Source: Reclinomonas americana ATCC 50394 (lineage: Eukaryota). Taken from it: a stretch of DNA of 37,183 bases. Below are positions 673 to 26,180 of the stretch, piece by piece. The number at the start of each line of letters is the position of its first letter. The first letter of the stretch is position 1. Where the stretch lies: positions 114,598 through 151,780 of the forward strand of contig PS015383.1 of NCBI GenBank assembly GCA_048213135.1, in the 5' to 3' direction. The position numbers and the translations under genes are program-made. Under the pieces are notes generated by a model that was not told the origin of the DNA, searched no databases, and saw nothing but the letters and a program-made list of their open reading frames with translations.

Positions 673-1421
673 TCAAACATAAAACACGCGTACCCGATTG
701 GTGGCCACCAAGTGGTCGCCGTCATAAAACATGGTCTCAATCACCATGTTGCCACTGCGTGTGCCGCGTGAGTCGAGGGAGGAGCGATGAGAGGAGTTCG
801 CGCACGCTCACCTCAACAGCTCCGGAGACAGCATGTGTCCGCGTGCGGCCTCGATCACCGACGCCCATGTGTTGGTCGAGCCGGGGATCACAAAACCAAA
901 GTCGAACTTCCACTCTACACTGTCGCGTCAGGCATGCGCAGACACGAGGGTGCGAGGACGAGAGCGACGACACACCCTCAATGGTCATATCCATCAGCTT
1001 GACGTGTTGCACGAGATGAAAGTTGTCCATCTTCTCTCGTGATGAGAACTCGATCTCACGCGAGACTGCCGGCGCCTCGAGGATACGCGCGGGTACTCTT
1101 GCTGCGCACACGCAACGCAAAGACTCTCAATCACATGCTCGATATCAGATCGAACTCCTCATGGCGTGCGCGCGCCACGTACCTTCCAGCTCCCCCGTGA
1201 AGAGTGCCTCTGGATCCCAGTTCGACTCCCACAACATCTCACCCGTCTCTGCGTTCTTCATCTGCATCTTCACCCTGTGCGACGACGAAAAAACGAACAA
1301 TCATGATCATCATGCTCTTACTCTCACTCTGTCTCACTCACTGGCCTCTCTCTCTCTCATGCGTACGCAACAATCTGAAACCCGCGGCAATGGCCTCGGC
1401 TGAGGGATGTGGAGAACTCAT
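673..1421 (-). CDS. PDE6D: PDE delta (GMP-PDE delta subunit), prenyl-binding ciliary trafficking factor; 5 exons
   Basis: Exons approx. 1421-1372, 1274-1183, 1101-976, 914-812 and 754-673 give [34 protein letters not shown]...[33 protein letters not shown]...[25 protein letters not shown]...[27 protein letters not shown]. This is colinear with PDE6D motifs (DAETG.ILW, ARVP..IL, VSRE.NFSS, EW.F.FGFVIP.STNTW, RVRLFYV). Confidence 0.93.
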
Positions 1422-1636
1422 TGATCGCCCTGTTCTCCACGCGCAGTGATGATGAGTTCCCCACAACACACGCGCACGCGCACACATATACAGTGAGACA
1501 CGCACACTCTCACTCACCTCTCTGTAACGACACGCCGACAGACAGATAAGGGGCGCGCTGTGGGACACACACGTCCTTCTTCTTATCTCGCTCTGTGTGT
1601 GTGTGTGTGCGTGTGTGTGCGTCTCTTGCTCTGCCC

Positions 1637-2317
1637 ATGACACAACGGAATCGCGTAGTGACGGCCACTGCGTTTGCGCAGTTGCTGAAGCTTGAAGTAG
1701 GAGTTGCGGATGCATGATGCGCGCGCAATAACTATTTCTTGACACACTCACTCACCCTGCACGCCTTCACTCACCACCCACAGGAGGACTGGTCGCTGAC
1801 ATCTCAAGGCCTGTTTGTTGCATTCCAGAAGAGCAGAGTGTTTCGATGGACAGCGTATCTGGTGAGCGTGTGTGTGGCTTGTCTCTCATCTTGCACGCAT
1901 GCATGTAATCGGTCTCTCATGCTCAACTCACAGGGCGGCATCTCGTGCTGGCTCGCTCGCTTCGCCAACTTCTTCTCGGCCGTTGTTCTCATGGCCATGG
2001 GCGGGTCGGACCAAGTGGGCACCGACGGCATTCTGGGCGCCTCAGTCGCCTTCAACACCACACAGTTCTTCGCCACTCTGCTGGCCATTCTCACGCTCAC
2101 GTGCGGCAGCTCGCATCAGATCGGGAAAGTGGGTCGCTTCTTGTCTGTGGCCCAATTCATGACCTTCATCGCCGAGATCTTCACGTGGGTGCGCTGGAAC
2201 AAGCTCATGGCCATTGGGCTGTACGGCAAGGCCTACGTGATAATCGTCACCATTGACGCCTGCACGTATCCATTCTTCCTCACCATGCAGTGGATCATGC
2301 GCGCGTGCTGTTGTTGA
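1637..2317 (+). CDS. Small multi-pass membrane protein of unknown family; probably 3 exons
   Basis: Exons approx. 1637-1702, 1784-1861 and 1934-2317. Several hydrophobic helices (FANFFSAVVLMAMGG; FFATLLAILTLTCG; FLSVAQFMTFIAEIFTW; AYVIIVTIDACTYPFFL), high GC3, ends MRACCC*. Start codon uncertain. Confidence 0.6.
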
Positions 2318-23347: not shown

Positions 23348-23472
23348 CGATGACTGAATGAGCTGGGACAGTCCAGGACAGTGCGAGCATGCGCGCGCAA
23401 TCTCCACTGTCACTCCAATTTGGGTGTGGGGGGTTTGCGTTGACACAGTAAGTGTGTGTGTGCGCGAGAGTG

Positions 23473-26180
23473 ATGTTGATCAAGGAGGATGACTTTCGCG
23501 AGGTGTACCAAACGATTCAAGTGAGCGTCAAGTCGGGTCGCGGCAGTGTGCTGATGGCTTGTGGAACGGATGCCGATGCTGTGTGCACAGCGCGCATTCT
23601 GACAGTGCGTGTTGTTTTCCCGCTCTCTCTCTCTTTGTCTCACACGCATGCACGCAGTGCTGCGTACTCATCTCTCTGTGTGTCACAGCACTTGTTTCGC
23701 ATGGATCACGTGGCGTATGAGGTGGTGCCAGTGGCGCGGTACAGTGATGTGCAGCGCGCGTATGCTGATTTCGTGCGCGCGTCGCGAGAGGTGTGTGGAG
23801 TGACGCACCAGCTTGGTGGTGTCTGTGCGCTCACTGTCAGTGTGTGTGCTGTGTGCAGCATCGGCACTTTATCATGATCAACTGCGGTGGGCTGGTGGAT
23901 CTTCGCTCCCTGTTCGGATCGTTGTCGCGGCGGCGGAGACAAGTCGGCGTTGGGAGGTTAGGCAGAGAGGGCGACGATGCAGACATGCGGTTTCGCGGGG
24001 CACGTGGGGGCCATGATGATGGTGTGGATAATGAGGATGATGCCGACGACGACGACGACGATGACGACGACGAAGAGGAGGATATGACAAAGATCGACGA
24101 CTCACCCGACACGGGGCCGCTGTTCTACATTTTCGACTCGCACCGGCCCATCAGTCTCGAGAACATTCAGCACCCACGAGTGCGTACCGCTGTCCTCCAG
24201 TGGAATGGCTGCAGCAGTTTGCTCACTGCGCTGGTGCAGGTCAAGATTTTTGAGATTGGCGACATTACGCACGAGGCGCAGCTGTTGCATCAGAACCTGG
24301 ACCAGGCCACGACGGCAGCCAAGGCAGCAGACGATTTTCTCGAGGGCGATGGCGACGGGGAATCGTCACGATTTGATGAGGAGGAGGACGACGACGACGA
24401 CGATGAAGATAGCGACAGTGATGACGATGACGATTTGGACGTGGCCAGTGGCATGTCGGGTCGGAGGAGACCGCGCAGTGCGTACTTGTCCACTCACTGT
24501 CCTTCCCTCACATATTGACCACTCGCTGCGCGCAGGTTCCGCCGGGAGCGATGTGGGTCCGCCCAGAAAACGGCGACGCAAGGACGACGCAGGTGGCCGT
24601 GTTTCACGACGCCGACTTTTGCGGCGAGCCCAGCGCCAGGTGCTCAAGGAGCACTATTCGGTTCGTTTTGACGCACAGGGGTAGCTGTTGTGCGTGTGTG
24701 CTGGCTGACGCGTGGAGCGTGCAGGGCATCACGTGGGGCATTCCGTCGTCGATGGTGGCCTTCTTGTTGAGCACGAAGCTGCAGCAGGCCACTTCCGACA
24801 TTCGCTGGTGGGCCATGGTGGGTCTCGCCGACCTCTTCACTCGCAACTGCTTCTCGGAGGAGCGGTATCGCGAGTTGTTTGCCGCCATGGCCGAGGAAAT
24901 CGCGGCGGCCGAAGGCGACGCTTCCTCGTTGCAAACCGACCGACTCATTCGCGACTCGCGGCTGACCTGTGGCATTGAGTTGCGTGCCGGATATCGCTTC
25001 TCCACGTATCTCTCTTCCTCCCCTCCCCTTCTCACACTCTCGACGGCAGGTATCGGTTCCCGCTGCTGCGTCACTGGTCGCTGTTCGACTCGATTGCACA
25101 CACGCCACACGTGATTGGCAAACTGAAAACGTGGACGGAGCGCGGAGTGCGCAAGCTGGAGGAAATGTTTGCCAAGCTCGGTATTCCGTTGTTGGACGCC
25201 AAGACATCAGTTGCGTGCTGCTGCGTCACGCGCCACCAAAAAAGTGATGCTCACGCGAGACTCGCAGTTTGGCAGCGTCCACCCGAAAGTGGTCCACACG
25301 CTGGAGGACAACACCGACCTCCTGGCGCAGGAGTTGGACATGAGGTCGTCGTCGCACACGCCGATTGGCCTGCCAATGTGCATGAAACCGTACGGCTACA
25401 CGCTGCGGCTGACCTGCACCGATATGGCCGAGGCGCTGGGGGCGATTTTCGAGTCGCCGCAAGCGTTGCCGCCGTCGTTGCGAGGCATGGTGCGCACACA
25501 GTCGTCGGTGTTGCTGGAGGAGCACATGCGTGTCGCCGCGTCGGCCTCGGGATCGATGTCGGACCATGCGAGCGAGGGCGCCGGTATGGCGGCGCTGCGC
25601 ATGGAGGTGCGCATGAAGGAGAACTTTTGGTTGGCCTACGATGCACTGGCGAGGTGAGTTGAAAAAACGAAAAAAGCGAGATCGACCGCCTCCTGATTGT
25701 GTGCTTGTGCGCAGCGAGCTTTCCGGTCGGCAGGGCATCCTGAGTTTCGGCGTCCAGCAAGCGGTGGCGCGCCGCGAGGCCGTGTTGCGGCAGGCTCTTG
25801 CGTTGTGGAAGCGCAAGATGATTTCCAATGTCGGCAACCTGCGCTACGCCCACATTGACCGCTCACCCGACCTGCCGTACCTGCTGCATCCGGGCACACT
25901 GTTTGCACTCTGTCACTTTGTGATGCACATGTTCCGTGGTGACGGCCGTCGTGCCAGACCGCTGGTGCTGGCCGCTCTGGACGAACAACGCGGCATTTGG
26001 CTGGTGGTCGGCACGCCAGCACTCGGCACCACATCGCGCAACACCTTTGGCAACGTATTCCGGAGAGCCGCCAAACGCAGCCGCGCTCGCGTGCATCACA
26101 CGATGTTCAACAAGGCGTGCATCGAGGTGCACACGGACGACTTTGCCAGCTTCTGGGACACGTTGGCTGGTGGGGAATGA
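23473..26180 (+). CDS. CDC45: Cell division control protein 45 (CMG helicase component); 9 exons
   Basis: DADAVCTARILT, YEVVPV, MINCGG.VDL, FYIFDSHRP..LENI, acidic insertions, WWAMVGL, EYRFPLLRHWSLFDS, LKTWTERG.RKL.EMFAKLGIPL, NFW.AYDAL, NTFG..F, ..IEV..DD...F. Confidence 0.95.

Follow-up and report, generated by a model that had tools for sequence, protein, structure and literature searches.

The window examined here, the whole of a 37,183-nucleotide stretch of Reclinomonas americana ATCC 50394 (contig PS015383.1, positions 114,598 to 151,780 of the forward strand), is 37 kb of gene-dense, very intron-rich and GC-rich (~47-62% outside gaps) eukaryotic DNA from a draft assembly, interrupted by five N gaps. 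Pfam searches with its open frames identified MCM, CDC45, phosphoglycerate mutase (PGAM), PDE6D, an LRR/IQ protein (LRR-IQ), eIF4E, a bZIP protein and a PDDEXK_6 protein. Our subject is the 5' splice sites (donors) of the introns in these and neighbouring genes. The local donor consensus is G/GTGCGT, where the slash marks the exon-intron boundary, -1 is the last exon base and +1 the first intron base. In 20 of 84 curated introns (24%), the donor reads N/GTT(G/T)CG(T), with the same consensus standing one base further into the intron. These shifted donors are real, and as a discrete class they account for about one intron in four in the window.

A discrete second class of donors

The gene finder first used relied on codon usage and GT-AG dinucleotides only, and is called donor-agnostic below; acceptor and donor models were added to it later. 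Its faults were false introns, overlooked short exons and, in one run, fused genes. Because it was too weak alone, the final introns were chosen by eye on three-frame displays by someone already aware of the hypothesis, and a script confirmed that every curated intron is GT-AG and every spliced open reading frame (ORF) intact. The resulting 84 introns (Table 1) belong to one 37-kb window and are not an estimate of a genome-wide frequency. All 84 are GT-AG, the only type that the aligner and the gene finder accepted; acceptors are almost always CAG (at position -3, 65 of 77 have C and 10 have T), and most introns measure 56-130 nt. The regions at 8.9-14.1, 33.3-34.5 and 36.5-37.2 kb contribute nothing to the counts. 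Two further candidates stand outside them, namely a donor at 3263, for which both donor and acceptor are ambiguous, and a second eIF4E donor at ~29361, which has no acceptor before a gap. Homology was brought to bear with a protein-to-genome aligner written for this analysis, whose sole splice demand is GT-AG. The MCM4 alignment set comprised 12 full-length homologs from a search of representatives, and of five MCM4 representatives that were looked up, three bear organism names (a choanoflagellate transcriptome, sharks and Andalucia). The PGAM set comprised 76 bacterial GpmA ORFs, drawn from 80 loci.

Table 1. Introns with shifted donors, and the number of curated introns in each gene (given once per gene). 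Alternatives are other GT dinucleotides in phase.
Gene	Curated introns	Intron	Positions	Strand	Donor	Junction and alternatives
PGAM	5	1	18597..19418	+	C/GTTGCGT	75/76 GpmA ORFs; Pfam His_Phos_1 contiguous across
PGAM		2	19438..19526	+	T/GTTGCGT	3' of microexon; 74/76 GpmA ORFs
MCM4	15	4	17054..17125	-	A/GTTGCAT	Phase 1 (SD-I-DQL); 12/12 MCM4 homologs (spliced alignment)
MCM4		6	16400..16464	-	C/GTTGCGT	Ambiguous; 3/12 homologs only; alternatives 16452, 16446
CDC45	8	6	24979..25049	+	A/GTTGCGT	Phase 2; flanks are Pfam CDC45 positions 306, 307 (split codon) and 308
CDC45		7	25210..25267	+	A/GTTGCGT	Phase 0; Pfam fit within ~5 positions; sole alternative GTCACGC
Beta-lactamase-like	17	1	23160..23223	-	A/GTTTCGT	No alternative; joins signal-peptide exon to next frame
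Beta-lactamase-like		6	22271..22341	-	T/GTTGCGC	After 20-nt exon; no alternative
Beta-lactamase-like		8	21863..21938	-	C/GTTGCGT	MDL/GW; no alternative; donor-agnostic gene finder agrees
Beta-lactamase-like		14	20958..21024	-	A/GTTGCGC	Needed for open ORF; one alternative, C/GTGCATT
Beta-lactamase-like		15	20803..20869	-	C/GTTGCGT	ORF logic; alternatives GTGGTCA, GTCAGAT
Beta-lactamase-like		17	20559..20619	-	A/GTTGCGG	No alternative
LRR-IQ	16	1	8203..8275	-	A/GTTGCGT	Ambiguous; alternative GTGATTG (8266), 9 nt downstream; donor-agnostic gene finder picks 8275
LRR-IQ		4	7345..7468	-	A/GTTTCGC	Splits IQ region RGIVVRK/FRTRM; alternatives GTATATT, GTCACAC
LRR-IQ		6	6829..6958	-	G/GTTGCGC	Doubtful; alternative G/GTGCGGC at 6898 gives a typical 70-nt intron vs 130 nt
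LRR-IQ		11	5778..5847	-	A/GTTGCGA	Phase-1 donor required to join frames; one alternative, T/GTTCATG
LRR-IQ		15	5180..5251	-	A/GTTGAGT	Shifted GTGAGT; ORF intact
PDE6D	4	1	1275..1371	-	T/GTTGCGT	Ambiguous; protein without insertion; alternative A/GTGAGTG at 1341 adds 10 residues
Small membrane-protein gene (1637-2317)	2	1	1703..1783	+	A/GTTGCGG	Ambiguous; alternative A/GTAGGAG 6 nt upstream (1697); no homologs
Coiled-coil	7	5	26968..27046	-	A/GTTTCGT	Donor-agnostic gene finder; alternative C/GTCTGTT adds proline-containing stretch
eIF4E	1
PDDEXK_6	3
bZIP	2
Gene beside first gap	4

The donor hexamers of the class are GTTGCG (15 introns), GTTTCG (3), GTTGAG (1) and GTTGCA (1), and GTTGCG is the commonest donor hexamer among the 84 introns, with 15 occurrences against 13 for GTGCGT. 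Final tallies refer to the 84 introns; the earlier statistics, that is, the register matrix and the motif enrichment, were computed on 77 donors. Among the latter, GTT[GT]C[GA] occurs at 19 of 77 donors and at 28 of the 1221 remaining GTs on the sense strand of these genes (odds ratio 14, p = 1e-12). By arithmetic from the base counts of the 77-donor table, a position-independent donor model, the yardstick proposed in the first-pass annotation of the window, predicts ~0.9 GTTGCG donors, and 15 are observed. An expectation-maximisation mixture fitted to the donors of the donor-agnostic gene finder separated CAG/GTGCGT and N/GTTGCGT components unprompted, and this gene finder independently chose 8 of the eventual 20 shifted sites. 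In other respects the shifted introns resemble the rest, with a median length of 72 vs 70 nt and C at acceptor position -3 in 18/20 vs 47/57.

The first-pass annotation had listed 16 such sites among roughly 70-80 introns and had proposed that the shifted register is a routine second donor class, as the 20 of 84 introns now bear out. All 16 coordinates carry the motif on the strand given (GTTGCG 13, GTTTCG 2, GTTGCA 1), with a base other than G at the end of the exon in 15 and G in one, and all 16 serve as donors in the curated models; five of them are nevertheless ambiguous, and one of the five, 6958, is probably wrong. The site at 1703 had been assigned to PGAM and belongs instead to a separate small membrane-protein gene. 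Four sites had been missed (21024, 5847, 5251 and 27046, the last of them beyond the range that the annotation covered), and with these the tally rises to 20.

Eight sites carry the best support. Four are fixed by homology at the level of the single base (18597, 19438, 17125 and 24979) and four are forced by the reading frame (23223, 22341, 21938 and 20619). The homolog agreement listed in Table 1 places cleavage at the GT in both PGAM introns and in MCM4 17125. In PGAM, introns with a GTTGCGT donor lie on both sides of a 19-nt microexon (19419-19437, + strand) that encodes (T)GWTDVD, and by Pfam exon coordinates the exons cover His_Phos_1 positions 17, 18, 19-24 and 25 without a gap. PGAM intron 1, 822 nt in length, contains long CA repeats as well as an N gap. 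In the beta-lactamase-like gene, exons 6 and 7 together supply 26-27 residues for the 30 positions of Pfam Beta-lactamase that lie between exons 5 and 8.

At CDC45 24979, use of the in-phase donor at 25006 would insert 9 residues. The peptide read through at this junction, ELRAGYRFS, is similar to the first residues of the next exon (YRFP), and Pfam puts both copies, that of the read-through and that of the next exon, on overlapping profile positions (~307-310). The GT at 25006, the second one in phase, might thus serve as a donor in its own right.

Support is moderate at 25210, 20869 and 7468, where the in-phase alternatives look weak. Five of the sites first listed are ambiguous, each with a credible alternative in phase: 1371, 1703, 8275, 16464 and 6958. 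The weak homolog agreement at MCM4 16464 is due to the variability of the region. For PDE6D, searches of the PDB with exons 1 and 2 matched unrelated proteins only, and Pfam returned nothing for the exon-1 read-through; protein homology searches with one exon each of the beta-lactamase-like gene, CDC45 and PDE6D gave no match. The LRR-IQ site 6958 is the only shift-type site among the 20 with G at -1; this donor is probably wrong, and 6898 is likelier. If the ambiguous five are dropped or replaced, the share of the class becomes 18-19%, and if the candidate at 3263 is added it becomes 25%.

Some further observations concern the same genes. In LRR-IQ, the intron start at 7468 (GTTTCGCTCC) matches the start of the next exon (GTTCCGCACA) at 7/10 bases, and no such trend exists across introns. 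The LRR-IQ junction at 5251 yields FQRAWR/EFKNRR, which we read as an IQ-like motif. Intron 7 of the beta-lactamase-like gene (22142-22211, - strand) has a G/GTTGGT donor and an unusual AAG acceptor, and another frame of it encodes TFAPGT. This stretch resembles the F-x-P-G motif that precedes YSN in the family; it could be an alternative exon, an assembly frameshift or a coincidence. In the gene beside the first N gap (3166-3263, - strand), the candidate donor G/GTTTCGG at 3263 is of the shift type with G at -1. It is ambiguous, as there is an alternative donor, A/GTGACTT, and no acceptor other than AAG or GAG is available.

It might be argued that the class is an artefact of gene models or a product of chance, the true donors being other nearby GTs and GTTGCG being merely common in GC-rich DNA. 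Five of the 20 sites do have a plausible alternative in phase, the gene finder made a false call of a GTTGCAT donor at 32883 after the donor mixture had been built into it, and spliced alignment with a low intron penalty makes false introns in divergent loci. Against this, none of the eight sites fixed by homology or frame alone has G at -1, and when all five ambiguous sites are swapped for their alternatives, 15 of 84 introns remain in the class, with G at -1 in 0/15 vs 60/69 (p = 9e-11). The motif is also rare elsewhere, both at the non-donor GTs counted above and in 45 other eukaryotic MCM4 loci from metagenomes, where the same aligner found it in 3 of 252 called introns. These loci are at most 77% identical in a very conserved exon and serve only as a noisy negative control, many of the 252 introns being certainly false and divergent stretches being skipped by the aligner. 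An artefact of this kind is therefore very improbable.

The register of the displaced consensus

For the register statistics, the shifted test group was defined as the 21 donors with T at +3 and no G at +5, and the remaining 56 of the 77 donors formed the normal group. The normal donors have G at -1 in 51, G at +3 in 35, C at +4 in 29, G at +5 in 50 and T at +6 in 36. In the shifted group this profile is mirrored one position later, with G at +4 in 17, C at +5 in 19, G at +6 in 20 and T at +7 in 14. The matrix built from normal donors scores the shifted group at -3.9 bits in the unshifted register and at +3.1 bits when moved by one base, despite a forced mismatch of T for G. The +1 register is preferred by 20 of the 21 shifted donors and the unshifted one by all 56 normal donors. 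The exception, 21814 (G/GTTTTG), was re-filed as normal.

The exon side is the informative one. G stands at -1 in 1 of 20 shifted introns and in 59 of the 64 others (p = 2e-13), so the association with a base other than G that the first-pass annotation had reported is upheld, and all seven donors with a pyrimidine at -1, among the 84 introns, belong to the shifted class. The -1 composition of the shifted group (A12 C4 G2 T3, n = 21) fits that of position -2 in normal donors (p = 0.39) and not that of normal -1 (p = 1e-10). The earlier suggestion that intron G+1 takes the place of the exonic -1 G is supported both by this composition and by the shifted matrix score. The result holds in the subset of introns fixed by frame only (-1 G in 0/4 shifted vs 16/16 others). 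Thus, on the exon side as on the intron side, the sequence statistics follow the shifted alignment, and the existence in these genes of the class and of its -1 rule is strongly supported.

The loss of the -1 G also bears on the idea that a spurious extra T was inserted by the assembly into ordinary GTGCG donors. This is a draft assembly, broken by five N gaps, and an insertion within an intron would be invisible to ORFs. Such an error, however, would not co-occur with the loss of G from the exon, nor would it strike 20 donors and yet spare the GTGCGT donors of the same genes, and we give it hardly any credence.

The reading that we prefer, with moderate confidence, is that the donors belong to genuine GT-AG introns of the major spliceosome, of the form N/GTT(G/T)CG(T), read by U1 small nuclear RNA (snRNA) in a register shifted by +1. 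Each such donor is the local consensus G/GTGCGT with its second G changed to T, so that the only GT lies one base further upstream. U1 would pair with the heptamer that it also binds at normal sites: G-(G/T)-T-G-C-G-T would be read in one way, and cleavage would occur before whichever GT is present. In such pairing, intron G+1 would occupy the place of the exonic -1 G, opposite C9 of U1, and U+2 would be the single mismatch, opposite C8, while U+3, G+4, G+6 and U+7 would replace the normal +2, +3, +5 and +6. Cleavage would stay at the GU because the later steps (U6/U5/Prp8) would require G+1 and U+2. U1 as the reader, and a single U1 acting in two registers, is what we infer from these alignments. 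Three features expected of a shifted register are seen in the window: cleavage at the GU, fixed at 18597, 19438, 17125 and 24979, a better fit at +1, and a -1 base that behaves as -2.

A standard U1 might instead pair canonically from -1 to +2, with one U (+2 or +3) bulged and pairing resumed at G+4, G+6 and U+7. The displaced TGCGT on the intron side fits a bulge as well as it fits a shift, and bulges at +2/+3 are recognised in human, where Table 3 of PMC4856993 gives 68 sites as predicted and 54 as curated. The two differ on the exon side, since a bulge keeps -1 opposite C9 of U1, where G is expected. G at -1 was found in 1 of 20 shifted donors, vs 12 of 12 other GTT donors that keep G at +5 (GTTCGT, GTTTGT and similar; p = 3e-7), and the -1 composition of the class follows the normal -2 position instead. 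A strong intron side might be thought to relax the need for the exonic G. Normal donors with a perfect GTGCGT or GTGAGT have G at -1 in 12 of 17 cases, the rest having A and never C or T (p = 1.5e-4 vs shifted), which speaks against a bulge accompanied by simple compensation. The five normal donors that have A at -1 (6011 and 5040 on the - strand; 23605, 24180 and 24478 on the + strand) all have a perfect GTGCGT or GTGAGT, which looks like compensation between exon and intron sides within the normal class. Because the -1 G is lost although a bulge should favour it, we prefer the shifted register and consider a bulge improbable.

Duplex energies were computed with nearest-neighbour parameters against the standard U1 5' end as printed in PMC4856993. 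The best register was the shifted one for 16 of 20 shifted-class donors, the +3 bulge for 3 of 20 and the canonical register for 1 of 20.

Several points nevertheless weigh against the shifted-register reading. In that register the shifted donors average +1.7 kcal/mol, vs -4.7 for normal donors in the canonical register, and the unconstrained minimum is -1.4 kcal/mol for shifted and -6.4 for normal donors. With duplexes so weak in every register, standard U1 alone may not explain efficient recognition. The C at +4 of the consensus itself mismatches standard U1, a hint that the 5' end of U1 in this organism may differ. The introns, moreover, were curated by hand from three-frame displays, a quarter of the shifted sites having a plausible alternative in phase; the candidate left out at 3263 would be a shift-type donor with G at -1; and all of the evidence comes from the genomic sequence of one 37-kb window.

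The weak duplexes and the mismatch at +4 make a changed or second U1 a serious rival to the shifted register. A second U1 snRNA, or an altered U1 5' end, would pair contiguously with GUUGCGU, so that two snRNAs would each work in a normal register. The sharp discreteness of the class, with the strongest possible GCG core (C in 19/21, G in 20/21), suits such a model. On the other side, the shifted and normal profiles run closely parallel at every position, the exon side included, as expected of one reader in two registers; with two snRNAs it would be a coincidence. An Rfam scan of the window gave 0 RNA-gene matches and thus no snRNA gene, a result that says nothing about the genome outside it. 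Overall, we hold a variant U1 to be unlikely, although it deserves to be taken seriously, and regard one U1 in a shifted register as the better reading.

Origins of the class and other features of the window

Two origins of the shifted introns were considered and are unsupported, because the introns share no sequence beyond the donor and bear no sign of duplication. For introner-like mobile introns, an all-vs-all blastn comparison of the curated introns gave 48 non-self matches; the 20 that were inspected span 13-21 nt, several at overlapping offsets, and were read as simple repeats, with none that links shift-type introns to one another. For tandem duplication of an exonic AGGT, the 10-nt identity between intron start and next exon is 2.77 vs 2.75 in shuffled controls (p = 0.45), and that between exon end and intron end is 3.23 vs 3.19 (p = 0.37).

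Elsewhere in the window, both strands of the region at 8900-14100 carry long open frames that lack a Pfam match and have a low coding score; within it, a low-complexity ORF at 9013-10203 (+ strand) looks like a single-exon gene. In eIF4E, the second donor at ~29361 (G/GTGAGGG) is followed by ~1 kb of T-rich sequence of lower GC content (29390-30400, + strand) that runs into an N gap. This stretch is probably a long intron, and the gene is for that reason incomplete in the window. Near the 3' ends of introns a CTCAC/CTGAC-like motif was noticed by eye.

Relation to known donor systems

Donors read in a shifted register have been described in mammals by Roca and Krainer in 2009, as summarised in PMC4856993. 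The sites in the window are like those in that summary in having a GU donor, a downstream consensus one position late, a -1 base that is usually not G, and cleavage at the GU. An oligonucleotide in the melting table of PMC4856993, ACA/GUCAAGUAUA, has the same architecture as A/GUUGCGU here. The displaced core differs, being GCG(U) in the window and AAGU in the mammalian shifted sites of that summary. The frequency differs as well. According to PMC4856993, validated noncanonical registers in human together account for 1.5% of 201,541 sites, whereas in the window a single shifted class accounts for 20 of 84 introns and supplies the commonest hexamer. It is thus a known kind of site, rare in humans, that is here a major class.

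The bulge +2/+3 register was reported by Roca et al. in 2012, again as given in PMC4856993. Such sites also carry an extra U right after the GU, followed by the consensus, and on the intron side they are indistinguishable from those in the window. Unlike what the bulge model as outlined there implies, with -1 paired to C9 of U1, the -1 G is nearly absent here.

The shifted introns could also be compared with U12-type introns, since in both cases a discrete second donor class lies inside the same genes. The consensus of U12 donors is /RTATCCTT. The donor hexamers of the shifted class do not fit it, and their acceptors and lengths are like those of the other introns in the window; on these hexamers they are not U12-type introns. 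In a choanoflagellate, PMC2396436 reports that the RNAs of the minor spliceosome were looked for and not found, a result that bears on the window only if the organisms are related.

A change of splice-site rules throughout a lineage has been described in tunicates, where the authors of PMC13326754 link it to changes in U1/U6 and U2AF. The present case is similar in that a lineage departs from the standard donor rules. Whereas the tunicates, as presented there, abandon the GT/AG rule, GT-AG is kept here at all 84 curated introns, and the change is confined to the register of the consensus around it. A literature search limited to open-access full text, which comes without the supplements where splice-site logos are usually placed, found no description of such a donor class.

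Models that describe donors with a single matrix will misplace introns of this kind. Within the window, the donor-agnostic gene finder misplaced 25210 and 16464, and several other shifted introns were never modelled.

What is known of shifted and bulged U1 registers comes from reporter experiments and from a small share of human splice sites. Our results tentatively suggest, as a possibility somewhat short of an even prospect, that in this lineage the shifted donors are a constitutive major class, in which ~1 in 4 introns begin with (A, C or T)/GUUGCGU, the commonest hexamer, their reader being either a single U1 that works in two registers or a second U1 dedicated to them. If so, no earlier natural system would be known where the choice of register is a genome-wide rule with a strict signature on the exon side, namely the lack of G at -1, and the U1 genes of the organism would show whether one snRNA or two read both classes. 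If it were true genome-wide, thousands of natural examples would become available of how the register is set and of how the cleavage site is chosen independently of U1.

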